This document shows, one piece after another, positions 2,484-59,412 of a stretch of 64,000 nucleotides of DNA. The position numbers were made by a program, and so were the translations under genes. The notes under the pieces were generated by a model. That model did not search any database. It worked only from the letters and a program-made list of their open reading frames with translations, and was not told the origin of the DNA. Source of the DNA: Candidatus Babeliales bacterium (GTDB lineage: Bacteria > Babelota > Babeliae > Babelales > Vermiphilaceae); NCBI GenBank assembly GCA_035455925.1, contig DATIEE010000006.1, positions 45,224 through 109,223 of the forward strand, in the 5' to 3' direction. Each line of letters opens with the position of its first letter. The stretch's first letter is position 1.

Positions 2484-2594
2484 AATCGCAGAAAGCAACT
2501 ATAAAAAAATTTATACATCACTGAAAAATACATATCAATTCTATCAACTATTGTCTACGATTTGTTAAAAAGTTTGAAGTTGAATAAAAATAGT

Positions 2595-2790
2595 GGCAAC
2601 TTATTCAAGTTGCCACTATCAAATCTACGCCTAAGGGACAAAAATCTGTTATTTAACGCGAAAAAAACCGTTCGATTTGATGCTGGGATTTTTCTGATCA
2701 TCAAGTATGGCGCGCCTGGCAGGATTCGAACCTGCGACCTACTGATTCGAAGTCAGGCGTTTTATCCGACTGAGCTACAGGCACAATTCA
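2595..2790. repeat. attL-like direct repeat (copy 1): remnant of recombinase 3' end plus degenerate tRNA-Arg copy
   Basis: ~196 bp aligning at roughly 85 percent identity to 7151..7346. It includes a 53-bp block identical in both copies (tggcgcgcctggcaggattcgaacctgcgacctactgattcgaagtcaggcg) corresponding to the 3' half of the tRNA. Confidence 0.6.
2711..2786 (-). pseudogene. degenerate tRNA-Arg(TCG) copy (D-arm mutated)
   Basis: Same sequence as the tRNA at 7263..7338, except the D-stem 3' strand reads aaac (+strand gttttat) instead of gagc (gctctat), so it cannot pair with gctc. Also one acceptor-stem G-C to G-U change. Likely non-functional. Confidence 0.5.
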
Positions 2791-2835
2791 ATAAGAACAG
2801 TACGGCCTTGTATTTGCAGCCATTTATCCCGTATG

Positions 2836-3165: not shown

Positions 3166-3369
3166 AACGGTACCAAAAAAAGAACTCTTAAACGGGATAT
3201 ATAAACCTCATCTTACTTTGGCATACTACAGGAGTGTGCAAAAGGTCATTGAACTCTTGAGGCTAAAATAATATTAAAAATACGACATAATGCTAAAAAT
3301 TATTTAAACTGTCTCTATTTATCTTCCTTCGCATAAAATTCGAAGAACAAAAAAAAAGAGAGAGAGACA

Positions 3370-4848
3370 ATGCATACACCCTACAATCGCTTTCACATTA
3401 TCACACTATTTTTTTCTGCTTTACTCTGCATTCCTATTACTGCAGAATATTCTATGGTAAAAATGACAGTCAATTCAGGAAATCAAACACATAGTGTAGA
3501 CTTTACAAGAAATAGATCTCAGCATGACTTTTCTCATAATAACAAATGGGACAATCCTAATGTTAATAAAAGCTCCTCGCACAGAAATCACTTTGATCGC
3601 TATACACCTCAGGATTTTCAGCAACATTTTATTGCTCAGCAATATGCAGAAAGCCAAATATTAAATCAGCATTGTTTATATATGTTTGATAATTTTGTAA
3701 AATTTGCACAAACATATTCCAGCTACCAATGCGCTATACAACAGCTCTATACTGAATTAAACAACCTTAACATTATACAAAAAGCTCATTGCATAATTAA
3801 AGGCACTTATTGTCCTGGATTACAAAAACGCATCCACTTTTTATATGATCAATTAAACACACTTAAACATAAAGCTCCCGCTTATACAGCCTCAGCATAC
3901 AAAGAACATTCGCTTGAAACATTCCCTGCGCAACAGTCTGAGTATAAGGCTTTACAGTCGACGTATAATACACATACACCATCTCTATCTACTGCTATTG
4001 GAAAACGGGTAGATGCATATAAAGATATGACCAAAGGTGATTACGCTCTGCAATACACAAGCAAATCATATAACCTCAACAATAATGTTCAACAACTATT
4101 ATCGCACCACGAACATGATGCAACACGCTTTACCCAATGCTATGGCCATCAGTTACACCATGTTATTCATCAGGAATCTTTGGACATTCTTAATCGCATT
4201 GATACCTTACCACACAATTCAATGCTGCACGATCACCAAGAAGCGTTAATCGATTTTACGGTAGCAATGGTAGATTATAATCATGAAAACCTTACTGATA
4301 AAGCTATGCACATTGGTGATCTGTGTTGGACCCTTCTTGATTATGGCCAAGCAGTTGCTGAAGGAGCTGCACTTGGCGTATATTCTGCCGCAACTGATAT
4401 TCTGAATAATCCTATCCAGGTAACAATAAGCATAGTTGCGGGCAAACAGGTTTTTACCTATCAACTCTGTAAAGTTCTTTATAATGTTGCCGACATTGGT
4501 GTAACCGCCATAAACAATCTTAATAATGCAAAAGAAAAATGGAACAAATATACTGAACCATTAAACGACATTATTGATGCTATCTATAAAAAAGAATTAA
4601 CAGTGCGCGATGCCATTAAAGGTGGCACTGCTTTTGTTGTCGGATATAAAGCACAAGGTAAATTACTTGGTGGATTAGGCAAATTTTGCAATACCATTCA
4701 ACAAAAAGCTGTACGTTTTGCGCAAAATAATGTTTCTTCTTTTACCATACAAGAATATTTAGCAACCCCTGAAGGATATTTGTTACAAAGCGTCGCTAAA
4801 ACATCTTGTACTGCATCTTGTCCTAATCAATATGATAATTTAAAATAA
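3370..4848 (+). CDS. hypothetical secreted protein, His/Gln/Asn/Tyr-rich (element cargo)
   Basis: 492-aa ORF with N-terminal signal-like hydrophobic segment (IITLFFSALLCIPITAEY), many H/Q/N/Y residues and no recognisable catalytic motifs. Confidence 0.5.
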   Translation: MHTPYNRFHIITLFFSALLCIPITAEYSMVKMTVNSGNQTHSVDFTRNRSQHDFSHNNKWDNPNVNKSSSHRNHFDRYTPQDFQQHFIAQQYAESQILNQHCLYMFDNFVKFAQTYSSYQCAIQQLYTELNNLNIIQKAHCIIKGTYCPGLQKRIHFLYDQLNTLKHKAPAYTASAYKEHSLETFPAQQSEYKALQSTYNTHTPSLSTAIGKRVDAYKDMTKGDYALQYTSKSYNLNNNVQQLLSHHEHDATRFTQCYGHQLHHVIHQESLDILNRIDTLPHNSMLHDHQEALIDFTVAMVDYNHENLTDKAMHIGDLCWTLLDYGQAVAEGAALGVYSAATDILNNPIQVTISIVAGKQVFTYQLCKVLYNVADIGVTAINNLNNAKEKWNKYTEPLNDIIDAIYKKELTVRDAIKGGTAFVVGYKAQGKLLGGLGKFCNTIQQKAVRFAQNNVSSFTIQEYLATPEGYLLQSVAKTSCTASCPNQYDNLK

Positions 4849-5700: not shown

Positions 5701-7326
5701 ATGATAGATACTATAGTTTTATCACTTACACCTGAATTATACCAAATCAGTGAACTTGATAAATTTAAATCATCTGCTATAACACCAAAACAAGCAATGA
5801 TGCTGTTGGGATTTAAAAGAGCCATGGAAGCAGCTCCATTGCGAGAGCTTAAATCCATAATAGGCAAACATAAACCACAATCTTGGTATCGCCTTATTAC
5901 TGAGGCAAATAAGATTACATTGCCTATGATGCATAGTCCACTTAAAGAAATACGTAAAAGTGCTTACAAAGATGATCGTTCAGAGTTTGATGCCATCTTT
6001 AACTTTATTATTGAACAGAAAGAAAAAATTGCCGTCTGTTGCGACAAAGTAAATCGGTTATCTCGTAATATATTTGATAAACGCGTTTCACACCTTTATG
6101 ACAAAGCATTATGTGACGAAATCGAATTACACTTCACTTCAGACGGGCAAATCATAAATAGCAAAATTTCTGCTGCAGAGAAGTTCCATTTTGGAATCAG
6201 CCTTGGACTTGCAAAGTATTATTCAGATGCCATTAGTGATAACGTCAAACGTGCAATGGAACAAAAATGGCAACGCGGTGAATGGACAAGCAGAGCGTCT
6301 CATGGATATAAAAATATCACCATAGAAGGCAAAGCCACCGTAATTGTTGAAGAGTATGACTCACGCATTGTACAGAAAGCTTTTGAACTCTATGCAACAG
6401 GAGCATTTTCTTTGGCTCTGTTATGCAAAAAAATTAATACCGAATACATACTTAATTGGACAACAAGCAAACTAGACTGGATACTCAATAATAAATTCTA
6501 TCATGGCATCATGGTGTTCAAGAGTAGAGAATATCCTCATAAATACCCATCTCTTATTAGTCCCACTCTTTTTGAACAGGTACAACAAGTGAAAAAAAAC
6601 TTCAACAAGAAACCAATAAAATATGCCGGCAAACCATACATATACCGTGGTCTTATCCGTTGCGCTGATTGCGGTCTTGCAATCACACCAGAAAAGCATA
6701 AAGGACACGTCTATTATCATTGCACACAATACAATGGCAAACATGGTGCCCAATGGTTACGAGAAGAAGAGATTACAAGACAATTGGAAGCAGTATTCCA
6801 GAATATGCGAATACCTGATGATATCGTTGATCAAATTGTTGAAACACTTAATGAAGTGCATCAAAGTAAAATTGAATTCCATAATCAGCATTTCGATAAG
6901 CTTACAAAAGAACACAAAGAAACCACCAAGATGCTCGATAATTTATACCTTGATAAACTAAAGATGAGAATTACTGAGAGCGACTATGACAGATTTTACA
7001 CATCACTACGGGATAAAGTTGCTGACTTGAGTATGCAATTAAGTAAATTACAAGAAGCTGAAGATAACTACTATATCACTGCAAAATACATACTAGATCT
7101 ATCAAAACGTGCTTATGATTTATTTAAAAGTTCTGAAGTTGAGGAAAAACGGCAACTTATCAAGCTGATACTATCGAACCTACGCTTAAGTGGCAAAAAC
7201 CTGCTATTTAACGCGGAAAAACCGTTCGATTTGATACTTGATTGTTCGGATCATCAAGTTTGGCGCGCCTGGCAGGATTCGAACCTGCGACCTACTGATT
7301 CGAAGTCAGGCGCTCTATCCGACTGA
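5701..7326 (+). CDS. large serine recombinase (resolvase/invertase-family integrase), N-terminus divergent
   Basis: NRLSRN block, recombinase-domain block (GYKNITIEG..IVQKAFELY) and zinc-ribbon block (YRGLIRCADCG...VYYHCTQY) align well with SpoIVCA/TnpX/phiC31-type large serine recombinases, followed by a coiled-coil-like C-terminus. The 3' end runs into the tRNA-Arg gene. Confidence 0.8.
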   Translation: MIDTIVLSLTPELYQISELDKFKSSAITPKQAMMLLGFKRAMEAAPLRELKSIIGKHKPQSWYRLITEANKITLPMMHSPLKEIRKSAYKDDRSEFDAIFNFIIEQKEKIAVCCDKVNRLSRNIFDKRVSHLYDKALCDEIELHFTSDGQIINSKISAAEKFHFGISLGLAKYYSDAISDNVKRAMEQKWQRGEWTSRASHGYKNITIEGKATVIVEEYDSRIVQKAFELYATGAFSLALLCKKINTEYILNWTTSKLDWILNNKFYHGIMVFKSREYPHKYPSLISPTLFEQVQQVKKNFNKKPIKYAGKPYIYRGLIRCADCGLAITPEKHKGHVYYHCTQYNGKHGAQWLREEEITRQLEAVFQNMRIPDDIVDQIVETLNEVHQSKIEFHNQHFDKLTKEHKETTKMLDNLYLDKLKMRITESDYDRFYTSLRDKVADLSMQLSKLQEAEDNYYITAKYILDLSKRAYDLFKSSEVEEKRQLIKLILSNLRLSGKNLLFNAEKPFDLILDCSDHQVWRAWQDSNLRPTDSKSGALSD

Positions 7327-7346
7327 GCTACAGGCGCAATTCAAAA
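7151..7346. repeat. attR-like direct repeat (copy 2): recombinase 3' end plus intact tRNA-Arg
   Basis: Direct repeat of 2595..2790 (see above). Confidence 0.6.
7263..7338 (-). tRNA. tRNA-Arg (anticodon TCG)
   Basis: Reverse complement gcgcctgtagctcagtcggatagagcgcctgacttcgaatcagtaggtcgcaggttcgaatcctgccaggcgcgcca has a proper cloverleaf with anticodon loop ctTCGaa and encoded CCA. Confidence 0.85.
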
Positions 7347-8288: not shown

Positions 8289-9794
8289 CTATTCCTTCAT
8301 CCGCAATGTTGGAAATAAAATTACATCACGAATAGATGGTGCGTTGGTCAAAAACATCGTCAAACGATCAATGCCAATACCAGATCCAACTGTTGGTGGC
8401 ATGCCATACTCAAGAGTTGTTACAAATTCAGCATCATAAAAATGTGTTTCATCTTCTCCTGCCGCACGAGCTTTTGCTTGATCATTAAAACGCTCAGCCT
8501 GATCGAATGGATTATTTAATTCACTAAAACCATTTGCTAGCTCCATGCCTGCGATATACAGTTCAAAACGATCGGCAAAATCATTATTATCAGCATTACG
8601 TTTTGAAAGCGGTGATACTTCAATAGGAAATTGCGTAATAAATGTCGGTTGAATAAGCGTTGATTCTACTAACTCTTCAAATAATATATTAAGTTTATAA
8701 CCCCATGATGGATTATTTTGCTCAACTTTTATAGCATGTTGAGTAATATATGTATCAATTTTATCACCAATAATATCCTCAACAGTACATTTAAGAACAG
8801 CCGCAACGGCTTCTTGCATAGTCATACGAGCAAAAGGTGCAGCAAAATTCAATACATACTCACCAAAATGAAGGTCAGTTGTTCCGCAGACTGTTTGCAC
8901 AATATGATGAAGTAATTGTTCAGTAAATGACATCATAAAAATATAATCTTGATTAGCTATATAATATTCTACCGTGGTAAATTCTGGATTGTGGCGAATA
9001 GATAATCCTTCATTTCTAAAACAGCGATTAATTTCATACACGCGATCGAATCCGCCAACTATCAAGCGTTTTAAATAGAGCTCTGGTGCAATACGTAAAT
9101 ATAACTCCATATTTAGCGCGTTATGATGTGTTACAAATGGCTTTGCAATCGCGCCACCAGGAATTGGGTGCAACATTGGCGTTTCTACTTCTAAAAATCC
9201 ATGTTCATTAAAAAATGAACGCATTGTTGCAACAATATGCGAACGTTTTTTGAAACGATCTTTACTTTCAGCATCAGTAATAAGATCAAGATATCGTTGA
9301 CGATATTTAATTTCCTTATCAGCGATACCATGAAATTTTTCTGGTAATGGATGAAGGCATTTACTCAGTAATGTAACTTCTTGTGCTTTAAGAGTTATTT
9401 CACCTGTTTTAGTACGAAACGATGTGCCCTTGCACCAAATAATATCACCGAGATCAAGGAAATTATTGACGAAAGAAAATGCTTGCTCACCAATAATATC
9501 TTCACGTAGATACAGCTGTAATTTTCCATTGCTATCTTGAATGGTAAGGAATCCTGCCTTGCCATGCATACGAGAGGTTAAAATACGTCCAGAGACTTCA
9601 TAGATTCGTGATTCTTGTGTATCAGTAAATTCTATTAAAACATCGCTACTTGTTGCATTTGTTAGTTTAGATGCTGGCCATGGATCAATCCCAAGAGCCT
9701 GCATTTTTTTTATTTTTTCTACACGAATTTGATATTGTTCTTCTGGTAGTTCATGTAACCCATTTTTTAATTCCATACGAGATATCCTATACAA
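8289..9794 (-). CDS. lysS: lysyl-tRNA synthetase, class II
   Basis: Class II motifs (FLEVETPML, GGFDRVYEINRCFRNEG, GIGIDRL), OB-fold N-terminus and typical length of 501 aa. Confidence 0.95.
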   Translation of the reverse strand: MYRISRMELKNGLHELPEEQYQIRVEKIKKMQALGIDPWPASKLTNATSSDVLIEFTDTQESRIYEVSGRILTSRMHGKAGFLTIQDSNGKLQLYLREDIIGEQAFSFVNNFLDLGDIIWCKGTSFRTKTGEITLKAQEVTLLSKCLHPLPEKFHGIADKEIKYRQRYLDLITDAESKDRFKKRSHIVATMRSFFNEHGFLEVETPMLHPIPGGAIAKPFVTHHNALNMELYLRIAPELYLKRLIVGGFDRVYEINRCFRNEGLSIRHNPEFTTVEYYIANQDYIFMMSFTEQLLHHIVQTVCGTTDLHFGEYVLNFAAPFARMTMQEAVAAVLKCTVEDIIGDKIDTYITQHAIKVEQNNPSWGYKLNILFEELVESTLIQPTFITQFPIEVSPLSKRNADNNDFADRFELYIAGMELANGFSELNNPFDQAERFNDQAKARAAGEDETHFYDAEFVTTLEYGMPPTVGSGIGIDRLTMFLTNAPSIRDVILFPTLRMKE

Positions 9795-9851
9795 TAAAAA
9801 AATATCAAAGCTATTTTCTATCAGTATAAGATATCTGTATTTTTTTACTAC

Positions 9852-10475
9852 TTACTCAACAACAGCACGATAATTTTCTTCTATCATATCCCAATTAATA
9901 ACATGCCACCATGCGCTAATATAATCAGGCCGTTTGTTTTGGTACTTGAGATAATATGCATGTTCCCATACATCAAGACCCATTATGGGAGTTGCATTAT
10001 ATAATAAAGGTGAATCTTGGTTTGGTAAAGCTGTTAAGACCAATTTTTTATCATTATCAACCGAAAGCCATGCCCAACCGCTTCCGAAAACAGATTTTGC
10101 CTGTGCATTAAAAATCGCTTGAAATTCAGCAAATGAACCAAATGTTTTTTTAATAGCATCTCCAACTAAGCCATTTGGCTCGCCACCCCCATTTTTTTTC
10201 ATAATGCGCCAAAATAATGAATGATTATAATGTCCACCAGCATTATTACGTACTGCAGTACGGATGCTTTCAGGTATCGCAAATAAATCAATAAGCAAAC
10301 TTTCAACTGATGTTGGCTGAAATTCGGGGCATGTTTCGAGTGCTGCAATCAGATTATTTATATAGGCTTGATGATGTTTGTCATGATGAATTTCCATTGT
10401 TTGCGCATCAATATATGGTTCAAGCGCGCCATACTCATAGGGTAAAGCTGGTAATGCATATTTCATGTTATGCAA
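9852..10475 (-). CDS. Fe/Mn superoxide dismutase
   Basis: HHDKHHQAYINNL and DVWEHAYYLKYQNKR signature motifs; 207 aa. Confidence 0.9.
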   Translation of the reverse strand: MHNMKYALPALPYEYGALEPYIDAQTMEIHHDKHHQAYINNLIAALETCPEFQPTSVESLLIDLFAIPESIRTAVRNNAGGHYNHSLFWRIMKKNGGGEPNGLVGDAIKKTFGSFAEFQAIFNAQAKSVFGSGWAWLSVDNDKKLVLTALPNQDSPLLYNATPIMGLDVWEHAYYLKYQNKRPDYISAWWHVINWDMIEENYRAVVE

Positions 10476-10516
10476 TCCTTTATATTATGTAAGATTAAAA
10501 CTATTATATCAAAAAT

Positions 10517-10801
10517 CTATATTCCTATATAAAAAAGTTCATCACCTTTACGCGCCATTTGCAGTTGCTCACGGGCAACTTTCTCTTTATAAAAATCATC
10601 TGTTTGCCATGCATGAATCTCTTTTTCTACTTTAATAACTTCTTCGCGTAAGGTATCAATTGTTTTTTTTAATGTAAAAACAACCTTTTCTTGATTTCGT
10701 AACTCTACAATACCATTCGGTCCAAAAAAATACAATTGTGTAAACAATGTTATTTCAAGAAGCACTACACATCGTATAAATATTTTTTTTATATATATCA
10801 C
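10517..10801 (-). CDS. septum formation initiator family protein (FtsB/DivIC-like)
   Basis: N-terminal TM, coiled-coil, and a C-terminal block EKVAREQLQMARKGDELFY typical of FtsB. Confidence 0.55.
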   Translation of the reverse strand: MIYIKKIFIRCVVLLEITLFTQLYFFGPNGIVELRNQEKVVFTLKKTIDTLREEVIKVEKEIHAWQTDDFYKEKVAREQLQMARKGDELFYIGI

Positions 10802-10918
10802 TTAAACTCCTTTTATGCTATGAGCTACCATTACATTAGTTCATATAACTTATTTTATTCTTCAATTATATTGACTTGTGTTACAATATTTAGCTTTTAC
10901 TAAAGAAAAGGAATTATA

Positions 10919-12409
10919 ATGAAAAAAATATCTATTATTACTATAATAAGCTTGCTCATTACCTGCATCATAGCTGAAGATGTACCGGTAAAAACAACTA
11001 ATACTTCTGATGAAAATTTTGATGAGACAATTTTTGATTGGTCACGTACTTTTGCCCAAGTAGTAGACATAGCACATAAAAAACATTATGCCATAACTGA
11101 TCCTCAGGCAAATATGATTAAAGCAATCGATGGATTTGTTAATTCATTGGATGCACATTCGAATTTATTAGATCCAACAAAATTTAATGATTTGCATACT
11201 ATGATCTCAGGTGAATTTTATGGGGTGGGGATTATGATTGATAATATGAGAAAGCAAAGTGATAAATATTTAACCATTGTTGACACAATTCCCGATGGTC
11301 CTGCAGATAAGGTTGGTATTCAACCAATGGATAAAATTGTGGAAATAAATGGTGAAAAACTTGAAGGACTAATGACAGAGAAAATAATTTCTTGGCTTAA
11401 AGGAGAACGTCATTCAATAGTCAAAGTAAAAATAATGCGTGAAAATAGTTCTGATTTATTAGCTTTTGATATTGTACGTGATGTCGTCAAAGAACAACAT
11501 TCTTTAAGTTTTAATATAAAAAATCATAATGTAGCATATCTGTCTCTTACCATGTTTACCGATACGGCTGTTAAGCAAATTGAAGAATTACTTAAAAAGT
11601 CACATACCCAAGAAACAAAGGGCTTAATCCTTGATTTACGTAATAACTCAGGTGGATTACTTACCGCAGCAATTGATATTGCAGGACTTTTTTTGGAACA
11701 AGGAAGCTTAGTAACATTAACGAAAGACAAAAACGGTAAAAAAATTGAAGAATATAGTACCACAAGAAAACCAATTATAAACAATAAACTCCCTATCTTT
11801 ATTCTTATCAATAATTATACTGCTTCTGCAGCTGAAATTATTGCGGGATGCCTCAAAATTAATTCTGACACAACAAATAATTTTTTAGTTTTCTTAGTTG
11901 GCACAAAAACATTTGGTAAGGGTTCAGTTCAAGAAGTTATACCAATAAGTAATAATTGTGCGCTTAAAATAACAACGTGTCTCTACTTTCTGCCAGATGA
12001 TACCACTATTCAAGGACGAGGCATTGAACCAGATTTTATAATTGAACGCACCCTGCCTATAACAGAACAAGTTCAATGGTTTATTAAAAATTATGGTCGA
12101 GAAGAAACACTGGACAACAGCATTAAAGTAACTGAAAAGGGCATTCCGTTGCCCAAAGAAATAAAAGAAAAAAAAGAAGAACCAACATTAATAACAACAA
12201 AAAAAAGTGGTGATAAACGATTTGATCGCGCAAAAGAAATGCTTCAAAACGATAACCAGTTACGTGAATGTATATCTCTTATCACTATGCTTAACACCGC
12301 CCAAACTTATATGCCGCAAATTGTCACAAAACGTGTAGATGCTATCTCGTATCTTAAAAAAAACTACATCTGCCATGATAGTTTAGAAATCGAAGAGGTT
12401 AAAATATAA
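10919..12409 (+). CDS. ctpA: carboxyl-terminal processing protease (S41 family, PDZ-containing)
   Basis: S41 motifs ILDLRNNSGGLL, TASAAEIIAGCL, TFGKGSVQ; signal peptide and PDZ region. Confidence 0.85.
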   Translation: MKKISIITIISLLITCIIAEDVPVKTTNTSDENFDETIFDWSRTFAQVVDIAHKKHYAITDPQANMIKAIDGFVNSLDAHSNLLDPTKFNDLHTMISGEFYGVGIMIDNMRKQSDKYLTIVDTIPDGPADKVGIQPMDKIVEINGEKLEGLMTEKIISWLKGERHSIVKVKIMRENSSDLLAFDIVRDVVKEQHSLSFNIKNHNVAYLSLTMFTDTAVKQIEELLKKSHTQETKGLILDLRNNSGGLLTAAIDIAGLFLEQGSLVTLTKDKNGKKIEEYSTTRKPIINNKLPIFILINNYTASAAEIIAGCLKINSDTTNNFLVFLVGTKTFGKGSVQEVIPISNNCALKITTCLYFLPDDTTIQGRGIEPDFIIERTLPITEQVQWFIKNYGREETLDNSIKVTEKGIPLPKEIKEKKEEPTLITTKKSGDKRFDRAKEMLQNDNQLRECISLITMLNTAQTYMPQIVTKRVDAISYLKKNYICHDSLEIEEVKI

Positions 12410-13280: not shown

Positions 13281-14687
13281 CTAATACGGTAGCCGATTTT
13301 TATTTCCCGTTAGTTGACGCGTATTTAAGGTATTCACTACATTATTACCTGGGAAATTATACCCTATAAGGGCTTTTCTAGCTACCATTGGGTCTTTTAA
13401 TATTGCCCTCACTTCATTATCTTGTGCATACTCAAATGGTTTTTTACCTTGAACATCTTTTATTTCAGGATCCGCTCCTCGAGAAAGCAAACAAAGCACA
13501 AGCTCTTTATCAGTAAGATCACTTGCTGGGTTTCTCTTTATATCATGACTTTGAGCCCAAGAAGAAAAATTCTGTGAAGCAAAATCATGAAGAACAGTCG
13601 ATCCCGATCTTTCTCTTTGCATATTTATATTACAATGTTCATATGTTAATACATAATCTAAAAAACCTACATTCGCATGATAAAGAATAGTAAGCATAGC
13701 TACATATTGCAGATGTTTATCTTTATCAGACAATCCTAAAGATGCTCCATTTGAAATAAGTAAGTTAGCTACATTATAAGCACCATTCTGATTTGCCCAG
13801 AATAGAGGAGTTAGGCCTTCATTATCTTTAGCGTTTACGTCTGCTCCATTGCTAATGAAACATTCTGCAACCGGAACATTATCCCCTATTTGCATTAACG
13901 GTGTTAAACGTTTTTTACTACGTCTATCAACCGCATATCCTCTATTAATAGCCTCTTGCGCAATTAAAGCAGGATTTTCAAAAATATCAAAATTAAAAGA
14001 CGCCATACCTGTGCCATCAACAAACTTTAAATGTGGGCCGGCACCTTTTTTAAATAAATATTCCCTTACTTGTTTTGAGCAAGCCCTTATAAGTGGAACA
14101 TCTTCAAAATCACTATTGGGATTTATACCAGCAAGATTTATATCCGCATTTTTTTCTTCAACAAGATACTTAACTATATCAAAACAATTTTTTTCGCAAG
14201 CAATACCCAATAAGGTGTCTTTGGCTTTCTCTAATGATTCAGCATATACGTATGTAGGCTCACCATTTCTATTATCAACAAATAGGCCTGATAAACGCAC
14301 GCGATGATTAACTGCAACTTCCTTTTCACGTATCATTTCATTAATATCATCAACATATGAAGATAAATGCTTTACCCTCTCAAGATCTTTTTTTTCACAT
14401 GCATCAAAGATTTGACGATACAACATATTGCTCCAACCACATTTATACCAAAACGATGCTTTATCATCATCATTGGATGAAAGATATAAATAAGTTCCTG
14501 CACCACCAGCAATTAAAACTGCTGCTACACTAAGACCAATTGCCTTATTATTTTGTTGCATTGAATGATTATTACTCACCGATAAAAATAGACTAAAAAT
14601 CATTAGCTTTTTAAAATTATTCATATAAAAATCCTTTGAAAAAATTAAACATAATTCATATTGTATTGATAGCGCATAAAAAAGCAA
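13281..14687 (-). CDS. ankyrin-repeat protein with N-terminal signal/TM segment
   Basis: Multiple ankyrin repeats (e.g. NGADVNAKDNEGLTPLFWANQNGAYNVANLLISNGAS); hydrophobic N-terminus. Confidence 0.8.
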   Translation of the reverse strand: MLFYALSIQYELCLIFSKDFYMNNFKKLMIFSLFLSVSNNHSMQQNNKAIGLSVAAVLIAGGAGTYLYLSSNDDDKASFWYKCGWSNMLYRQIFDACEKKDLERVKHLSSYVDDINEMIREKEVAVNHRVRLSGLFVDNRNGEPTYVYAESLEKAKDTLLGIACEKNCFDIVKYLVEEKNADINLAGINPNSDFEDVPLIRACSKQVREYLFKKGAGPHLKFVDGTGMASFNFDIFENPALIAQEAINRGYAVDRRSKKRLTPLMQIGDNVPVAECFISNGADVNAKDNEGLTPLFWANQNGAYNVANLLISNGASLGLSDKDKHLQYVAMLTILYHANVGFLDYVLTYEHCNINMQRERSGSTVLHDFASQNFSSWAQSHDIKRNPASDLTDKELVLCLLSRGADPEIKDVQGKKPFEYAQDNEVRAILKDPMVARKALIGYNFPGNNVVNTLNTRQLTGNKNRLPY

Positions 14688-14776
14688 ATTTATATTAAGT
14701 AGTACACAAACATTAAAACAATTTCATCCTGAAAAACCGAAAAAGAAGAAAGAATTATTGTGACAGAATAGAATTT

Positions 14777-16630
14777 TTATTCAACCGTGACTGACTTTGC
14801 AAGATTGCGTGGTTTATCAATCGGACAACCACGTAATCTTGCAATTGTATAGATAAAATATTGCATGATTCCCAGCATCGCCAATGGCCCAAGTAATGGT
14901 GGCACATCGCTAGATACAATGAATGAAGTTTCTGCAAGCGAGCATAGTTCATTTTGTCCGCTATAAGCAAACGCAATAATACGTCCGCCCCGAGCCTTAA
15001 CCTCATGAGCATTAGAAAGAATTTTTTGATAAATAACAGGATCACCATGAGAAAAAATATAAATCAACATCGTAGTATCAACTAAAGCTAACGAGCCATG
15101 CTTTAATTCACCTGCAGGATAACTTTCAGCAAATACGTAGGCAATTTCTTTTAACTTTAATGCACCTTCCATTGCAAGAGGATAACTAATATGTCTACCT
15201 AAAAATAATGCTTTATCATATGATGCATAGCGTTGCCCATCTATGGTATCAATACGATATGTATATTCTTTTAAAGAATCTTCCAGTAATTGTGCTACTC
15301 GTAATAAATCTTCTTCTGCTTTAAACAAATCCGCATAATTTATGATTTTTTTTTCAAGAGCAATACGATACGCAAACCAATAGAGAACTGTAAGTTGAGT
15401 GGAGAAAGCTTTTGTTGAAGCAACAGCAACTTCAAATCCAGCGTGTGTTAATAAATAACCATGAGCTTCGCGTATTATGGTACTCGTTGCAACGTTAGTA
15501 AGCGCAATCGTTGGCAAATTATAGATATTAATTAATCGTAATGCCTCAAGCGTATCTGCTGTCTCGCCCGATTGAGAAATAACAATATATAAAGCCTTAT
15601 CTTGCGGAAAAAAAGAAGTGTACCTAAATTCAGAAGCCAAATGCACTGTCACCGGGATATGCGCAATTGATTCAAAAAAAAACTGCGCTATTCGCGCCGC
15701 GTGCCACGAGCTGCCGCATGCTAATAAAACTATATGTTGCAAGCTTGCTAATTGTTGTGCCGTTATGCCCAACTGATCAAATAAGGATAAACCGACTTCT
15801 AAATCACGTAATGATTTTATCGTTGCGGTAATAGCATTATTTTGTTCGTATATTTCTTTGAGCATAAAATGTTCATACCCATTTTTATCAATATGCTCAA
15901 AAATAGTTGCAACGGTTTGGGCAGTAACAGACAATTCATTACCAGCAAAATCGTATACTTTAACGGAATTTTTATAGACAAAAGCAAAGCTTTCATCAGG
16001 TAAAAAAAAGTATGTATCTGTTTTTCCTGCAAATGCTAGAACATCTGACGCAACAAACATTTCATCATTACCAATACCGATATATAATGGTGATTTCTTA
16101 CGAACAGCAATAAGTACGTTGGGAAATTTTTGAAGCATAATAACAAAAGCATATGCTCCTTGCAATTTCTGCGCCAAAACACCTATTTCATCTGGCGCAA
16201 TTTCAATTGATAATGCAATGGACTCAAAAAGGTGGCTGATAACTTCAGTATCTGTATCAGACTGAAATACATGATTTAATTGAAGTAACTGAGACTTTAA
16301 AATATCATAATTTTCGATAATACCATTATGCACAACAGAAATAGTGCCAGAGCAATCAAAATGAGGATGGGCATTACGCTCTGAAATATCACCATGAGTT
16401 GACCATCGAGTATGACCTATACCCAAAAAGCCGTCGATGGGATTTTGTTTGACTTGTTTAGCTAAAAAAAGAAGTTGACCAGCTGCTTTAGAATATAAAA
16501 GTTTCTGATTTACTGGTTCGATACACGCAAAACCTGCAGAATCATAACCACGATACTCTAGTCGAGCTAGTCCTTCAAAAATAAATGTGCTACACAGAGA
16601 CTTTCCAATATAGCCAATAACAGCACACAT
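14777..16630 (-). CDS. glmS: glutamine--fructose-6-phosphate aminotransferase
   Basis: N-terminal MCAVIGYIG Ntn-amidotransferase start, SIS-domain motifs (SQSGETADT) and the characteristic C-terminus NLAKSVTVE. Confidence 0.95.
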   Translation of the reverse strand: MCAVIGYIGKSLCSTFIFEGLARLEYRGYDSAGFACIEPVNQKLLYSKAAGQLLFLAKQVKQNPIDGFLGIGHTRWSTHGDISERNAHPHFDCSGTISVVHNGIIENYDILKSQLLQLNHVFQSDTDTEVISHLFESIALSIEIAPDEIGVLAQKLQGAYAFVIMLQKFPNVLIAVRKKSPLYIGIGNDEMFVASDVLAFAGKTDTYFFLPDESFAFVYKNSVKVYDFAGNELSVTAQTVATIFEHIDKNGYEHFMLKEIYEQNNAITATIKSLRDLEVGLSLFDQLGITAQQLASLQHIVLLACGSSWHAARIAQFFFESIAHIPVTVHLASEFRYTSFFPQDKALYIVISQSGETADTLEALRLINIYNLPTIALTNVATSTIIREAHGYLLTHAGFEVAVASTKAFSTQLTVLYWFAYRIALEKKIINYADLFKAEEDLLRVAQLLEDSLKEYTYRIDTIDGQRYASYDKALFLGRHISYPLAMEGALKLKEIAYVFAESYPAGELKHGSLALVDTTMLIYIFSHGDPVIYQKILSNAHEVKARGGRIIAFAYSGQNELCSLAETSFIVSSDVPPLLGPLAMLGIMQYFIYTIARLRGCPIDKPRNLAKSVTVE

Positions 16631-17797: not shown

Positions 17798-18091
17798 TTT
17801 TTCCTCTTATCTTTAAAAAAATTCTTGAGCAACAATGTTACCTCACCAATAAAAAAAACCCTTTTATTCGTAAAGGCATCCCTTTTGTATACTCAAAGAC
17901 TCTCATAGTTGTCAAGAAAAATACTCAAGGGATTGCATTTCATTTTTTGTTTTTTTTATTCTTTGTTCTTTATACTTTGCTTTTGTGGAATTGGTTTTTT
18001 TAGTGTGCAATAATAAATATAATTATAAACTAAATTCCTAATAGACAGAATTGTTAATATTTTTTAAAAAAGAACATTTTTTTCGTAAATA

Positions 18092-19030
18092 TTATGTTGT
18101 TTTAGTTTCAATAATTTTTACATTACCATTGATGCTGTGAAGTGCAATACTTGCTTCACCAGTGCCAATGGTACCGTCAACTGCTTTTTTAAACTTATTC
18201 CATGCTGAATTATTAAGTTGCGTTGTGTAGGGTCGCAAGGTAATAGGGTGATCAGATATAAGAGTTCCATGTTCCGTATATCCATGAATTTCAGCATTAG
18301 TTTCAACAGGTAGCGCGAGTACAATGTTGCCTGATATAGTTTTTAAATTAATTGCGCTTATCGAGGGCACTTCCTTGCAGTAAGCAATTACTTTACCTGA
18401 TGAGGAATGTGCGTTAAAACTATGACTAATATTTTCTCCATAAATGTTTCCATGATAGGAATGAACATTTACTGGGCCTTGGGTGTTTGCAATGGTAATT
18501 GATCCCTTTTTGTGTGTGTAAGCGGTTACTGATTTATGTGTGTTTATTATGGTAATATTATCATTTGTATTAACATTAATAGTTCCGTAAATATCTTTTA
18601 TGAATGCGTCGCCATTTCCTGATATTGTAAGAGCGATATTGAGTGATGTAGGAACGATCAGTTCGTATTCAACAGAGCCAGTCAGTTTTGGGTTGATATA
18701 GTTTGTCGTGATGGTAAGATAATTATTTTTGCTGGAATCAACCATAACTTCAATATTATTGAGATCCTCCTGTTTTCTTGCTCGTTTTGTTGTTTTTAAT
18801 AAAAGTGAATTTTTTTTCCAACCGGTTTTAATCGTGATAGGGCCATTAATATTATCAATAGAGATATTTTTTACTGATAATGTAGAAAATTCCTGTTGAT
18901 CTGTTTTTTCTAACTTATAATTAGTAAAAAAAGTTTTTATTTTTTTACAATAGTGTTGGGCATAACAATTAGTTGTCATTAATGTGCATGTGATAGCGAG
19001 TGCAAGGGTTATACACATAGTTTTATTCAT
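18092..19030 (-). CDS. secreted beta-rich repeat protein (DUF4097/putative-adhesin-like)
   Basis: Signal peptide. Repeated G-x-I/V-x-V strands (NGNVKI, SGNIVLALP) typical of beta-helical DUF4097 proteins. Weak assignment. Confidence 0.4.
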   Translation of the reverse strand: MNKTMCITLALAITCTLMTTNCYAQHYCKKIKTFFTNYKLEKTDQQEFSTLSVKNISIDNINGPITIKTGWKKNSLLLKTTKRARKQEDLNNIEVMVDSSKNNYLTITTNYINPKLTGSVEYELIVPTSLNIALTISGNGDAFIKDIYGTINVNTNDNITIINTHKSVTAYTHKKGSITIANTQGPVNVHSYHGNIYGENISHSFNAHSSSGKVIAYCKEVPSISAINLKTISGNIVLALPVETNAEIHGYTEHGTLISDHPITLRPYTTQLNNSAWNKFKKAVDGTIGTGEASIALHSINGNVKIIETKTT

Positions 19031-19137
19031 TCGTTATCCTTTGATATAGTAAGATATTCAATTTTTTGATGTGTTTGTAGCATACAAAAAATGTTGTGCT
19101 AATTCAAAGAACAGTATTGTTATAATAAGGAAAAACG

Positions 19138-20517
19138 ATGAAATTAATGGGCCAGCAGTATGATAAAATACATGAAATTATTGAAGTAATTAGTCAAAAT
19201 AAAGGCCGTGCTTTGTTAGTTGGTGGCGCAGTGCGTGATATGGTTTTAGGTTTATTATTAAAGGACATTGATATTGAAGTTTATGGTCTTTCGCAATCTC
19301 AATTAGAAAGTATTTTACAAAAATTTGGTCATGTAAATTTAGTAGGAAAATCGTTTGGTGTGTTACGAGTTAGTGGTCTTGATGCTGATTGGTCATTGCC
19401 ACGTGTAGATAGTTCAGGACGCAAACCGACTGTTGAGGTGGATCCGTTTATGTCCATTGAAATTGCTGCACGACGCAGAGACTTAACGATGAATGCAATG
19501 TTGTTTGATATGATAACAGGTGAGCTAATTGACCCGTGTAATGGGATAGATGATATTAAAAAAAAAGTATTACGAACTCCTGATGCACGTTTTTTTATTC
19601 AAGATCCATTACGGTTTTATCGTGTTATGCAATTTATTGCGCGATTTGAAATGATACCAGATGATGAATTGAATGCACTATGCGCCGAGATGGATATTAC
19701 ATCTATTTCACGGGAACGCATTGAAGAAGAATTTAAAAAAATGTTTTTATATGCACAACGGCCCTCACTAGGGATTCGTTGGGTGCATAAAATTGGACGT
19801 TTGTCTGATGTATTACCTGAGCTTGCGGCTACTGTTGGGATAAAACAAAACCCACAATGGCATCCTGAAGGAGATGTTTTTGAGCATACAATGCAATCCC
19901 TTGATGCCGCAGCAGTTATAGCTCAGAGCTATGATAAAGAGTTCGACAAATTAATACTTTTATATGCTGCACTATGTCACGATTTGGGAAAGGTGACGAC
20001 AACTAAAATGGTTAATGGAGTTCTTAAAAGTATTGGCCATGAAAAAGAAAGTAAAAGATTGGCTTGTTTGTTAATGAAACGTATTACGCATAATAGTGAT
20101 TTGATTAATGCAGTTGGCTGTTTAGTTTTACATCATATGGCACCATTGCAATTTGTGCGTAATAAAGCAAAACTGCCTGCATATAAACGTCTAGCAAATA
20201 AATTAGTACATAATGTCACCATGCTTATGCTTATTGATTTATGTAGTGCTGATAGACAAGGTCGAAATGATACAGGGCATGAACCATTAAAGGATAATTT
20301 TTCGGATTTAATGGTTTTTAAACAAAAAGTGGAACAAGCCGGAGTTTCTACAGGTCGTATCGATCCGTTATTAAAAGGTGCTGACCTGCTTGATATATTA
20401 TCGCCAGGGCCTCAAATGGGAAAATTGTTGACATACGCATATGAAAAACAACTTGCGGAGGATATTAGTGATAAAGCTATTTTAAAAAAACATGTTATTA
20501 AAAAAATGAAAAAATAG
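19138..20517 (+). CDS. cca: CCA-adding enzyme / tRNA nucleotidyltransferase with HD domain
   Basis: LLVGGAVRD, DIDIEV, RRRDLTMNAM nucleotidyltransferase motifs plus an HD motif (ALCHDLGK). Confidence 0.85.
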   Translation: MKLMGQQYDKIHEIIEVISQNKGRALLVGGAVRDMVLGLLLKDIDIEVYGLSQSQLESILQKFGHVNLVGKSFGVLRVSGLDADWSLPRVDSSGRKPTVEVDPFMSIEIAARRRDLTMNAMLFDMITGELIDPCNGIDDIKKKVLRTPDARFFIQDPLRFYRVMQFIARFEMIPDDELNALCAEMDITSISRERIEEEFKKMFLYAQRPSLGIRWVHKIGRLSDVLPELAATVGIKQNPQWHPEGDVFEHTMQSLDAAAVIAQSYDKEFDKLILLYAALCHDLGKVTTTKMVNGVLKSIGHEKESKRLACLLMKRITHNSDLINAVGCLVLHHMAPLQFVRNKAKLPAYKRLANKLVHNVTMLMLIDLCSADRQGRNDTGHEPLKDNFSDLMVFKQKVEQAGVSTGRIDPLLKGADLLDILSPGPQMGKLLTYAYEKQLAEDISDKAILKKHVIKKMKK

Positions 20518-43489: not shown

Positions 43490-43900
43490 ATGAATATGCG
43501 AGCAATGATGTTTACTGTTGCATTCTTTTTATCTAGTGTGCCGATTACATCGATGGCGGAATATAAATTTAATACACAAAAAAAACTCTATTCATCATAT
43601 GCTGCATCATACATACTTTCATTAGTGTTGAGTGGTTGTGTTGGCGTAACCACCGGTAGTACAATACGCTATGTTGAAAGGAAATACGATTTTGAATCAT
43701 CTACGTTATTATTGTTTTTAGGTTGGATGGTTGAATATGAAATACGTAATAATATTATTACGTATTTACAAAAAGATTTTGATATGTATAAGGTTAAATA
43801 CAAAAAAGAATCTATGTTTACTATTGGATGGATTGCATCATGGCTTGCATATTTATATAAGAATGACATCATTTCGAGAGATATTTTTTTGCATAACTAA
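43490..43900 (+). CDS. hypothetical membrane protein
   Basis: 136-aa ORF with signal/TM segments. Confidence 0.3.
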   Translation: MNMRAMMFTVAFFLSSVPITSMAEYKFNTQKKLYSSYAASYILSLVLSGCVGVTTGSTIRYVERKYDFESSTLLLFLGWMVEYEIRNNIITYLQKDFDMYKVKYKKESMFTIGWIASWLAYLYKNDIISRDIFLHN

Positions 43901-43991
43901 TTATTTACTAGTTGGTTAAATGGATAATTTTTATTATATTACTACATAGGTATTGATTTTTATTAGTGTATATTTATGTAGATGAGGTAAA

Positions 43992-44774
43992 ATGAAAAGG
44001 TATTTGTTATTAATGAGTTTGGTCAGTGTAGTGAATAATTATACAATGAATCCAACAATCAACTACAAAGATAATACTAAACTTCAATTGATAACATCCT
44101 TACAAGATAACTCTTTTGATGCGGTGGTAAATCTATTACACGATAATCCGAAGTTGCTTCATGATAATAAGAATCCTTATATTGATCAACTTTTCGCGCG
44201 CAAATTCGTTACGCTGCCGCCCCAGTTCCTGAATAGTAAATTGGGAGATGGGTTGACACCTGATCAATTAGCTTTGATAAGAAAAAATAATAATGCATAT
44301 GATTATATGAAAAAATTAGTACATGTGGGATTTGATCTTGATGTACGTGGTGAGGATGGAATGCCTTTATTGTGTCAAGCAATTCTATATACATACGATG
44401 ATAGATATTTAGAATTATTAAAGGGTGGTGCACGGGTAAATGTTTATGATAATTTTGGCAATACGCCATTAGCTTTTGCAGTTTTTTTAGATCATCCAGA
44501 AAAAGTATCAAAGCTACTTGCTTATGGCGCAGTAGTTAACATAAATACGTATCAAATACATTTAAATTCCGGCTTTCAAATATTAAACACTTTATTATTA
44601 ATATTCTGGCAGCAAAAATGTATTCTGTGCAACACGCATAATTATGATTTATATAATATTCCATGTGTTAATCGCCACCTAGAGCATTTCCTGTGTATAA
44701 ATTGTTATAAGGATATGGAGTATGAATATAAAAAGTGTCCTTTATGCCGTAGGAATCTTGATAAGGAAATTTAA
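43992..44774 (+). CDS. eukaryotic-like ankyrin-repeat protein with C-terminal RING-like zinc finger
   Basis: Ankyrin repeats (DGMPLLCQAILYTYDDRYLELLKGGARVNVYDNFGNTPLAFAV) and a C-terminal Cys/His array CILC-x11-C-x3-H-x2-H-x2-C-x2-C-x10-CPLC resembling C3HC4 RING. Confidence 0.65.
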   Translation: MKRYLLLMSLVSVVNNYTMNPTINYKDNTKLQLITSLQDNSFDAVVNLLHDNPKLLHDNKNPYIDQLFARKFVTLPPQFLNSKLGDGLTPDQLALIRKNNNAYDYMKKLVHVGFDLDVRGEDGMPLLCQAILYTYDDRYLELLKGGARVNVYDNFGNTPLAFAVFLDHPEKVSKLLAYGAVVNINTYQIHLNSGFQILNTLLLIFWQQKCILCNTHNYDLYNIPCVNRHLEHFLCINCYKDMEYEYKKCPLCRRNLDKEI

Positions 44775-45024: not shown

Positions 45025-45078
45025 AATACATAATCCCATTTGTAAGTAATCACAAATGGGATTATGTATTCAATTTTG
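45025..45078. terminator. bidirectional rho-independent terminator (19-bp perfect stem)
   Basis: AATACATAATCCCATTTGT-aagtaatc-ACAAATGGGATTATGTATT followed by caattttg, between a convergent plus-strand gene and rpsT. Confidence 0.75.
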
Positions 45079-57573: not shown

Positions 57574-59412
57574 TTGTTGTCTTTTAAATTGTTATCTTTA
57601 TTCTTTTTAATTTTTTATAGTAGCAATATATGGGCTGAAGAAAGTGTTTTTTTAAACTCTGCACAGACGCATATTATTAAGATGGTTTCTCAAAAATTGA
57701 TGTATAAACCTATCTTGGAATTTAAGCAAGCGGTTATTAGGTATGTCAAAAACGCTGATATACGTTGTTTGCAAGGATCGCACTGTAATATCAATGACCA
57801 TAATGTAACATATAAAAAAGAGTTATATTTTCTTTTCAAAAATTATGACAAATTTTCTATATTAACATTGCTTTCCCGAACACGTTCTGCTCATCAATCA
57901 ATGGTTACCTATGAATCTGACGCTAATTCTGATGAATATAAAAAATATGAACAAATATCGAGTGCTCTTTTACTAATATGCGCTCAGGTTATTTGTGATG
58001 ATGTACGCAATCAACTTTTAAATATTTTATATGAAATTGATAATAGAATTATTTATTGGTCGTATCAAAAGAATCATCCAATAACTTATTTTTTTAGAAA
58101 ACCACCTATTAAATGGCTTAAGGGTAAACCTCAAGAAAAAGAAGTTTTATCTAATATAAATCGATTAGAGCGTAAGCAAAGAGAATTATATACTAAGTTA
58201 GGTTTATTGACTGAACATCTACATATATTTGCTGAAGGGGACCTTTCTTATGATCATTGTTATATGTGGTTGGAAAAATTTCTTAGATTGTTATCATGCA
58301 TTAAAGAGAAATCTATTTATGGGCATAACGATATACAATTTGAATATATTGCAGCTACATTAGAATCAAAAATTAAATATAGTGATATTTTAAAAAAAGA
58401 TTTTTTTACCGCAACTATTTCTAGTAAAAAACCAAATCATTTTACTCGTAACTGGATAATATATATGACAATGGTGGCATTAACCAACTATGTAATGCAT
58501 TATCATGCAGCCAATCCAGATGTGCTGCCAGAATCCTTTCACACAACAGTTAATTTTATCTTCGTAATAGGGCATAGCGTGATAGTTGATCCAATGACGG
58601 ATTTATATCAGGTTTTTTTTGGAAGAGATTCACGTAGTTCAGTTGAAGAAATTGAAAATCGCGTTATTGATATAGAAAGATTGGCTAATTCTATTGAGGC
58701 AAACGTTGCCGAGGCAACGCAGCAAAGCGCTCAATCTTTACGAGAATATGCTGAAGATCTATTGGAAAAAAGATTGCAACATATGAAGATTGATAATGCT
58801 GAAGATATTATGAAAGATGTAAAAAAAAATAACTTTGAAAGTTTTAATGCATTATGTGAAAATACATCATTTTGGTACTATGACAATCGCCTTGATCAAG
58901 AAGAAGTGCGTATTCTCTTAGGATTAGATAATTTATTTAAAATATTACAGGAATACCCAGATCTTATTGATAAAAAAATTCTTCCTTTGGTTAAGGCAAT
59001 AGGGTTATTGATTTCTGATAGTGGAAAAATTATAGGTGCATTTGTTAAAAATAATTTTTGGACAGCAAAGCTTGCTGCATTCACCCCATTAGCTGCAGCA
59101 TGTATTAGTGTTGTGAGGACATATAAATGGGCTACTACGCGTAATTATTCGCCAATTCGCATTGCGCTTGCTGAAGTTAATTCTTTATTGATAGAATCAG
59201 CCGAACAGATTGATGATCATGATTATGGAAAATTAGTATATTTGATTTTTAAATTAAGAAATAAATCTTCTTCTTTGAAGGATTCTTTGTCTCATGAATT
59301 CTTAATTGATGTAGTAAAACTTGAATCAAAACAATACTCCGTGCAAAAAAAGCGCGGTATTATTGAAAATATGTTTAATAAATATACATTTTTGGGGCGA
59401 GTTATTTCATAA
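57574..59412 (+). CDS. large secreted hypothetical protein, paralog A of a two-member tandem family
   Basis: Signal peptide. Shares conserved blocks with 59541..61109 (LLNILYEIDNRIIYWSYQKNHPITYFFRKPPIKWLKG; C-terminal RNYSPIRIALAEVNSLL...KRGIIENMFNKYTFLG). Confidence 0.5.
   Translation: MLSFKLLSLFFLIFYSSNIWAEESVFLNSAQTHIIKMVSQKLMYKPILEFKQAVIRYVKNADIRCLQGSHCNINDHNVTYKKELYFLFKNYDKFSILTLLSRTRSAHQSMVTYESDANSDEYKKYEQISSALLLICAQVICDDVRNQLLNILYEIDNRIIYWSYQKNHPITYFFRKPPIKWLKGKPQEKEVLSNINRLERKQRELYTKLGLLTEHLHIFAEGDLSYDHCYMWLEKFLRLLSCIKEKSIYGHNDIQFEYIAATLESKIKYSDILKKDFFTATISSKKPNHFTRNWIIYMTMVALTNYVMHYHAANPDVLPESFHTTVNFIFVIGHSVIVDPMTDLYQVFFGRDSRSSVEEIENRVIDIERLANSIEANVAEATQQSAQSLREYAEDLLEKRLQHMKIDNAEDIMKDVKKNNFESFNALCENTSFWYYDNRLDQEEVRILLGLDNLFKILQEYPDLIDKKILPLVKAIGLLISDSGKIIGAFVKNNFWTAKLAAFTPLAAACISVVRTYKWATTRNYSPIRIALAEVNSLLIESAEQIDDHDYGKLVYLIFKLRNKSSSLKDSLSHEFLIDVVKLESKQYSVQKKRGIIENMFNKYTFLGRVIS

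Follow-up and report, generated by a model that had tools for sequence, protein, structure and literature searches.

A candidate secreted E3 ubiquitin ligase mimic with ankyrin repeats and a C-terminal RING finger in Candidatus Babeliales

A 64,000-nucleotide stretch of a Candidatus Babeliales genome (contig DATIEE010000006.1; hereafter the window) carries, at 43992..44774 on the forward strand, an open reading frame (ORF) with an ATG start for a protein of 260 amino acids (aa), in which a hydrophobic leader is followed by an ankyrin-repeat solenoid and a C-terminal RING finger. The assignment of the ankyrin and RING domains is close to certain. We consider it probable, with real room for doubt, that the protein is a secreted, eukaryote-like mimic of RING-type E3 ubiquitin ligases, produced by a host-dependent member of the Babeliales (Dependentiae) and acting along the full chain from export to ubiquitination in the host. 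The NCBI record of the identical protein names it as an ankyrin protein of Candidatus Babeliales bacterium, a name that does not reflect the RING domain.

Results

The C-terminal domain and its zinc ligands

Seven of the eight cysteines of the protein lie in its last 51 residues, in the arrangement C210-IL-C213-x11-C225-VNR-H229-LE-H232-FL-C235-IN-C238-x10-C249-PL-C252. The letters read exactly as in an earlier note made from the sequence alone, which had picked out the motif CILC...CPLC. When six-frame ORFs of at least 60 aa from the whole 64 kb were scanned with a relaxed RING regular expression, this ORF was the sole match, and the Cys/His pattern is no chance match. The Pfam family zf-C3HC4_3 scored 28.8 bits on the whole protein (E 1.1e-6, residues 207-257), above its gathering cut-off of 27 bits, and 33.6 bits (E 3.5e-8) on the isolated domain. 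Prok-RING_4 (PF14447), which has the same cut-off of 27 bits, reached 25.1 bits on the whole protein and 29.8 bits on the isolated domain. Among 53 homologous RING domains of the family, zf-C3HC4_3 was matched by 46/53 and Prok-RING_4 by 31/53 (E<0.01). The former outscored the latter in every comparison, whether the whole protein, the isolated domain or the number of members matched was considered.

A profile built from these 53 domains (alignment A4) was compared with all PDB sequences and matched only RING E3 ligases. The best matches were RNF4 (9e-7), RNF141 (1e-5) and cIAP2 (1.2e-5), followed by cIAP1, RLIM, Arkadia, AMFR, MDM2 and CBL, and hhalign of A4 gave probabilities of 93.7% for the cIAP2 RING and 90.8% for RNF141. 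Together with the Pfam scores, these matches bear out the claim of the earlier note that the array is closest to a C3HC4 RING. Residues of the E2-contact type are all present, namely L212 (before the second ligand, C2), P250 (after C7) and R253 (after C8), and align with the equivalent positions of cIAP2 in hhalign. We take them to be the counterparts of residues that contact E2 or E2~ubiquitin in characterised RINGs, R253 being of the linchpin type. Across the 53 domains an aliphatic residue stands at the L212 position in 41, proline at P250 in 51 and arginine or lysine at R253 in 31. Other conserved positions of the family are I223-P224, F233, Y239, Q208 and H216 (42/53).

C210, C213, C225, C235, C238, C249 and C252 are each found in 53/53 family domains. 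H229 is kept in 51/53 and H232 in 9/53, and in one orthologue (P0003) a four-residue insertion separates the two histidines. The ligands are therefore C210, C213, C225, H229, C235, C238, C249 and C252, in the order C-C-C-H-C-C-C-C that the C3HC4 type demands. Judged by conservation, then, the ligand histidine is H229 and not H232, and the domain is a C3HC4 RING, occupying residues 208-256 (44613..44759, forward strand) on the combined evidence of Pfam, profile matches, ligand conservation and the structural model described below. The earlier note had allowed for an array of eight or nine ligands; eight are upheld, H229 among them, and H232 drops out. It had also held that a lack of conservation in homologues would tell against the proposal, and among the Cys/His residues this applies to H232 alone. 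Since all eight zinc ligands are present and conserved, the domain is a RING and not a U-box, a RING-like fold without zinc ligands, and the latter was rejected. By the standard RING cross-brace scheme, zinc site 1 is predicted to consist of C210/C213/C235/C238 and site 2 of C225/H229/C249/C252.

The textbook RING consensus is C-x2-C-x(9-39)-C-x(1-3)-H-x(2-3)-C-x2-C-x(4-48)-C-x2-C. The earlier note had described either the C3-H4 or the H4-C5 spacing as slightly non-canonical. The C3-H4 spacing fits the consensus; it is the H4-C5 spacing, of five residues, that deviates. Over 59 family domains this spacing is 5 in 41, 4 in 13 and 8-13 in the remaining 5. The departure is limited to this single loop, and the profile models still accept the domain as a RING.

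A different register has been weighed for this copy, and it concerns structure rather than function. As a RING-H2 domain the ligands would be C210, C213, C225, H229, H232, C235, C249 and C252, with C238 free. The sequence fits the C3H2C3 spacing C-x2-C-x11-C-x3-H-x2-H-x2-C-x13-C-x2-C without deviation, and phmmer alignments to the RING-H2 domains of ARK2C, RNF165 and Arkadia place H229 and H232 on their two histidines. However, the invariance of C238, the rarity of H232 and the insertion in P0003, which would break the H4-x2-H5 spacing, indicate that selection has acted on C238 and not on H232. The RING-H2 register was rejected at the level of the family on the counts of H232 against C238, and for the window protein itself we regard it as very unlikely.

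Ankyrin solenoid, structural model and C-terminal tail

The ankyrin-repeat solenoid spans residues ~28-190 (44073..44561, forward strand), with canonical repeats at ~100-185 and degenerate ones towards the N-terminus. Ank_2 matched residues 100-185 at 30.7 bits, above its cut-off of 27.3 bits, and the stacked solenoid is seen in the model at residues 28-190, so the ankyrin repeats read from the sequence in the earlier note passed the Pfam check suggested there. In a Foldseek search with the model, ~180 columns were aligned to DARPins (designed ankyrin-repeat proteins) with target TM-scores of 0.58-0.66. A linker helix before the RING (residues 195-207; 44574..44612, forward strand; from the predicted secondary structure) ends in a conserved F/Y-x-x-Q motif, whose Q208 is found in 46/53 family domains.

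The final AlphaFold2 (AF2) run used an alignment of 33 sequences (A3) and gave a mean predicted local distance difference test score (pLDDT) of 87.6 and a predicted TM-score (pTM) of 0.84, with residues 201-260 at pLDDT 86-95. It superseded an earlier run with three sequences, in which the RING was poor (pLDDT 44-75). The RING region of the final model has strands at 220-222 and 233-235 and a helix at 236-241, and this strand-strand-helix order is, in the model, the beta-beta-alpha arrangement that would be expected of a RING. Residues 76-97 (44217..44282, PPQFLNSKLGDGLTPDQLALIR...) are an insertion unique to the window protein among the 33 aligned relatives, and the model is less confident there (pLDDT ~71-82).

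The protein ends in ...RRNLDKEI, and the tail D257-K-E-I260 with the stop codon occupies 44760..44774 on the forward strand, as read from the sequence and from column counts. The G-x-[FY]-G tail common in relatives is missing. The column of residue 259 holds F or Y in 39/53 family domains and E in the window protein, and F, Y or W stands three positions from the C-terminus in 28 of 59 relatives. In RING dimers of the IAP, MDM2 and RNF4 type, the priming of E2~ubiquitin depends on an aromatic residue at the third position from the C-terminus.

Gene start and leader

A Shine-Dalgarno-like GAGG at 43984..43987 on the forward strand lies 4 nt 5' of the ATG at 43992, as read from the sequence, and the second Met codon (44046) has no comparable motif before it. 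The first ATG is therefore the likely start of the gene, which would make the hydrophobic leader part of the translated protein. On hydrophobicity and the family motif, residues 1-18 (43992..44045, forward strand) are a presumed Sec signal peptide, composed of the n-region MKR, the 11-residue h-region YLLLMSLVSVV and NNYT, with M19-N20 following. The maximum Kyte-Doolittle score over nine residues is 2.7.

Of the 63 family members whose N-terminus is intact, 39 begin with a hydrophobic stretch. Among the longer members with a leader, 24 of 34 have the motif [GASCT]-M-[DENQ] at its boundary; in control windows taken from the same family proteins the motif has a frequency of 2.8% (binomial p ~4e-30). 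Twenty of these 24 have A or G at -1, an AxA-like boundary. In sequence, the family boundary looks like a signal-peptidase site after which the mature protein would begin with the conserved Met.

The same leader is carried by the two other eukaryote-like proteins of the window (13281..14624, reverse strand, and 36608..37129, forward strand), and the same type of leader occurs at 9734.., 11768.., 12184.. and 13524.. of L001, a locus from a sister genome.

The protein at 36608..37129 (173 aa) contains, besides its leader, the basic runs KKRKK and KRRKR and three C2H2-type zinc fingers, for which the Pfam C2H2 matches are weak and under the cut-off. Its basic runs look like nuclear localisation signals, and it could possibly be a secreted, nucleus-targeted effector. 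The second ankyrin protein (13281..14624, or 13281..14687 in its longer extent) matches Ank_2 at 72.9 bits and has no RING. After the leader it has a second hydrophobic segment, AIGLSVAAVLIAGGAG, and may be membrane-anchored.

Family distribution and divergence

An exhaustive hidden Markov model (HMM) search with a profile of the C-terminal RING against 1.84 billion cluster representatives returned 65 representatives at E<=1e-3, 25 of them at E<=1e-10. The family comprises ~60 clusters at 50% identity, mostly with a leader, ankyrin repeats and a C-terminal RING. The RING sits at the extreme C-terminus in nearly all matches, which range in length from 87 to 733 aa, and is preceded by ankyrin repeats in most members. 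All source-named family members are labelled Candidatus Babeliales bacterium, and a few atypical weak matches among the representatives at E<=1e-3 have no taxon assignment. It was the RING-only profile that proved informative, as the 33-sequence alignment A3, used as a search profile, was swamped by generic ankyrin proteins. A contig scan with ankyrin peptide patterns returned only three unrelated ankyrin proteins (L004-L006). Four matches to the family motif [DN]IPCVNRH in a scan of IMG/VR DNA were chance matches in unrelated ORFs; as far as this motif goes, there is no sign of the ankyrin-RING subfamily in viral contigs.

Two orthologues with 40-41% identity occupy the equivalent position in two related assemblies. 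The gene order common to the three genomes is PBP2, a hydrophobic protein of ~130 aa and the ankyrin-RING gene; farther upstream, the window and L001 both have XerC/D and a 906-aa sigma54-activator-like protein. Flanking housekeeping proteins, PBP2 included, are 73-80% identical between genomes, compared with 40-44% for the ankyrin-RING protein and 44% for the small upstream protein. Within the ankyrin-RING protein the ankyrin core and RING retain 53-59% identity and the N-terminal repeats and linker 10-37%. On these alignments the family evolves fast except for the RING ligands and the ankyrin framework.

L001 contains two more paralogues with a leader, ankyrin repeats and a C-terminal RING (9734..11740 and 13524..15515; 668 and 663 aa), no more than 8 kb downstream of the orthologue. 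The genome of the window has rpsT/rpmB/ftsH where L001 has this cluster, and from the gene content the cluster is one that was gained or lost between close relatives. At the locus L002 another family member (3210..4652) is the next gene to the orthologue. The GC content of the ankyrin-RING gene (0.318) equals that of the window (0.323), and base composition therefore gives no hint that the gene was transferred recently. On this ground, and because its position is syntenic in three genomes, recent horizontal acquisition was rejected.

Genomic neighbourhood

When 40 more ORFs from the 64 kb of the window, each of 120 aa or longer, were scanned with Pfam, none matched an E1, E2, ubiquitin-like protein (Ubl) or JAB family, and precomputed Pfam tables showed no gene of these four kinds in the regions flanking either orthologue. 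An operon link to bacterial ubiquitin-like systems was rejected on the scans of the 40 window ORFs. According to the precomputed tables the immediate neighbours are housekeeping genes. The housekeeping genes recognised in the Pfam scans of the window encode tRNA synthetases, EF-Ts, RRF, trigger factor, SOD, DsbD and SSB; for FtsH and Tol-Pal the source is the precomputed tables of a matching locus (L003). The window scans also revealed one serine recombinase and one more ankyrin protein.

The gene that precedes the ankyrin-RING gene in all three genomes encodes, in the window, a hydrophobic protein of 136 aa (43490..43900, forward strand). It has no Pfam match, and it diverges as fast as the ankyrin-RING gene (44% identity, against 73-80% for PBP2). 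It may be linked in function to the ankyrin-RING protein, perhaps as its chaperone or as a partner of the immunity type, or may just be one more effector. Between the convergent ankyrin-RING and rpsT genes, a scan for terminator-like structures detected a hairpin at 45025..45070 whose stem is 19 bp long; it is a possible bidirectional terminator. A promoter consensus scan around the gene was uninformative, with 8 promoter-like sites against 14.4 expected.

Elsewhere in the window, the GC skew changes from negative to positive at ~17800..19140, where gene orientation also turns from reverse to forward; a dksA-like gene lies on one side of this point and the gene of the CCA-adding enzyme on the other. 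Such a switch is typical of a replication origin, though no dnaA was seen beside it. Two copies of a ~290-nt repeat containing tRNA-Arg(TCG) (2503..2791 and 7061..7344; 72-94% identical) flank a 4.5-kb segment with a serine recombinase (5701..7326) and a 492-aa ORF without a Pfam match, a layout resembling that of an element that has integrated at a tRNA gene. Two tandem paralogues on the forward strand (57574..59412 and 59541..61109) have weak C-terminal matches to Pfam NCA2, at 22.0 and 25.6 bits (cut-off 20.6). NCA2 is a eukaryotic protein that regulates the mitochondrial ATP synthase, and a cultured relative of the lineage remodels host mitochondria.

Discussion

The features described above can be arranged into a sequence of events. 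The leader would take the protein through Sec, with cleavage probably just before Met19, and release through a type II system or in vesicles, as the literature on relatives suggests, would bring it to the host cytoplasm. There the C-terminal C3HC4 RING would bind two zinc ions in a cross-brace and use L212, P250 and R253, the last of the linchpin type, to dock host E2~ubiquitin. A host protein held by the ankyrin solenoid, which has about five repeats, would be ubiquitinated and then degraded or re-routed, the target presumably being chosen by the fast-evolving ankyrin surface.

Published work on relatives fits such a sequence. In Babela massiliensis, signal peptides were reported for 79 of the 126 ankyrin proteins (Pagnier et al. 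2015, PMC4378268), and type II is the sole secretion system found in it (PMC4378268). Type II secretion genes were present in all TM6 genomes studied by Yeoh et al. (PMC4776705). Chromulinavorax has 98 ankyrin proteins, 78% of them with a signal peptide, and shows vesicle budding; RING domains are not mentioned in that paper (Deeg et al., PMC6561590). Support for a host-targeting effector, which the earlier note had thought very likely, comes from the fit with the Babeliales, from the N-terminal leader and from the absence of E1, E2, Ubl and JAB genes in the neighbourhood.

Several points weigh against the protein being a secreted ligase. That the domain binds zinc and E2 and acts as a ligase is something that we infer from sequence, and as regards the predicted cross-brace, the whole-model fold searches gave ankyrin proteins only. 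The H4-C5 spacing is 5 where the consensus has 2-3, all other spacings being canonical. Because the tail aromatic is absent, this copy might be weaker or work differently. The residues at -3 and -1 of the window protein, N and T, are atypical, and as a site for signal peptidase N-Y-T|M is poor. Export would take a zinc domain rich in Cys through the oxidising environment of the periplasm, and we know of no Dependentiae protein for which a route from periplasm to host cytoplasm has been demonstrated.

Some of these observations suit a protein that is directed at the host and is not a catalyst, with a RING-like module for binding or dimerisation only and ankyrin repeats that do the rest; its effect could lie in tying up a host E2, in blocking a host E3 or in docking onto a host complex. 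The non-canonical H4-C5 loop, the presence of R or K at the linchpin position in only 31/53 family members and the loss in the window protein of a tail aromatic found in 39/53 relatives are all compatible with it, and many RING folds, such as MDMX and BARD1, are inactive partners. However, the E2-contact residues (the aliphatic residue two positions after C1, the proline after C7, the arginine after C8) are present and conserved beyond the needs of a scaffold, and the best profile matches, RNF4, cIAP1/2, RLIM and Arkadia, are active ligases. We regard the non-catalytic alternative as unlikely.

Still less probable, in our estimation, is an endogenous role in the bacterium. The protein could be an ankyrin protein that is anchored in the membrane or resides in the periplasm, with a Cys/His cluster unrelated to ubiquitin, or a prokaryotic RING of a ubiquitin-like conjugation or conflict system. 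Prok-RING_4 does match, on the isolated domain and in 31/53 relatives, the gene lies amid the housekeeping genes PBP2, rpsT, rpmB, ftsH and tol-pal beside a co-conserved small membrane protein, and the leader could be an uncleaved signal anchor, given the poor -3 and -1 residues. Bacterial ubiquitin-like conjugation systems exist (for example PMC10557695). The statement in the earlier note that bacteria have no ubiquitin system was thus too strong: given such systems and prokaryotic RING families such as Prok-RING_4, an endogenous role has to be excluded by context and not in principle. That context is one in which E1, E2, Ubl and JAB genes are missing from the 64 kb window and the orthologue flanks, and zf-C3HC4_3 ranks above Prok-RING_4 by every measure. 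Moreover, an ankyrin fusion behind a cleavable-looking leader is a hallmark of the Babela and Chromulinavorax effector repertoires, the evolutionary rate is twice that of the neighbouring housekeeping genes, and paralogues have been locally amplified in the sister genome L001. Membership of Prok-RING_4, or of a prokaryotic ubiquitin-like system, was rejected on the consistently lower score and the lack of companion ubiquitin-like genes at the loci.

A secreted ligase mimic of this kind would have company among host-dependent bacteria. The nearest precedent in phylum and lifestyle is a RING finger protein of Babela massiliensis, proposed to be a potential E3 through which the host ubiquitin system is exploited (PMC4378268). 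That report dealt with a single protein and gave no architecture, ligand analysis or family, whereas here there is an ankyrin fusion and ~60 clusters. Legionella AnkB (ankyrin and F-box), the U-box-like LubX, GobX and RavN and the RING-like Lpg2370 and MavM are mimics of eukaryotic E3 modules (PMC5819833), and RING/U-box and leucine-rich repeat (LRR) families are found in Parachlamydiaceae (PMC4209131). The logic shared with these effectors is that of an amoeba-associated bacterium coupling a repeat domain that picks the target to a eukaryotic E3 module. The Legionella effectors are type IV substrates without a Sec leader, whereas the ankyrin-RING protein has a Sec-type leader; U-box effectors lack zinc ligands (PMC5819833), whereas all eight are kept here; and Parachlamydiaceae NEX1b uses LRRs and has its RING/U-box at the N-terminus (PMC4209131), whereas here the RING is C-terminal.

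Among eukaryotic proteins, the E3s that combine ankyrin repeats with a C-terminal RING (plant XB3/XBAT, animal MIB1/2) show no detectable close sequence relationship to the family. Compared with them, the bacterial proteins add a Sec-type leader and a longer C3-x3-H4-x4/5-C5 spacing. The RINGs of cIAP1/2, MDM2, RNF4 and RNF141 have in common with the family an aliphatic C-x-[VIL]-C, I-P-C before ligand 3 and C-P-x-C-R. IAP, MDM2 and RNF4 also have an aromatic at the third position from the C-terminus, as do most family members, and it is in this respect that the window protein differs from those dimers. Relative to cIAP-type RINGs the family has a shorter tail, and its loops are longer, by two residues from C3 to H4 and by two to three from H4 to C5. 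The top Foldseek match in a viral structure library was the giant-virus RING-type protein A0A3G4ZPD2 of Terrestrivirus, a weak likeness with a TM-score of 0.24-0.28 and 14% identity.

A broader proposal goes beyond this one gene and, taken with all its parts, is rather doubtful. It holds that the Babeliales have a ligase class of their own, built of leader, ankyrin repeats and RING and delivered through Sec and type II rather than type III, IV or VI. Cleavage would expose a Met-Asp/Glu/Asn/Gln start and so help the protein to survive in the host cytoplasm. Such a start is of the NatB type in the eukaryotic cytoplasm and is not destabilising by the N-degron rules, although its bearing on these proteins is speculative. 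Most members would form IAP/RNF4-like dimers through the G-x-[FY]-G tail, and copies without the tail would be monomeric or regulatory. Finally the leader, being present also on the C2H2 zinc-finger protein and the second ankyrin protein, could serve as a tag for predicting Dependentiae effectors.

It is already known that host-dependent bacteria carry eukaryote-like E3 modules, and a RING protein had been flagged earlier in the phylum. What is new here is a sizeable Babeliales family with a distinctive H4-C5 spacing, tail and leader. A full-text literature search returned no description of an ankyrin-RING family in Dependentiae. The copying of eukaryotic E3 modules by intracellular bacteria is well established, and the finding adds to this picture without upsetting it. 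Dependentiae are widespread and almost uncultured parasites of protists, and this locus is a concrete and testable candidate for host control among them. Its product combines a presumed Sec leader, an ankyrin domain that would bind targets and a RING of the true zinc type as opposed to a U-box, and type II is the only secretion system reported for the lineage. If the protein is an active ligase, it would raise the matter of how a Sec substrate gets to the host cytoplasm, add RING E3 mimicry to the tools of the phylum and provide ~60 diverged ankyrin "adaptors" with which host targets could be sought.

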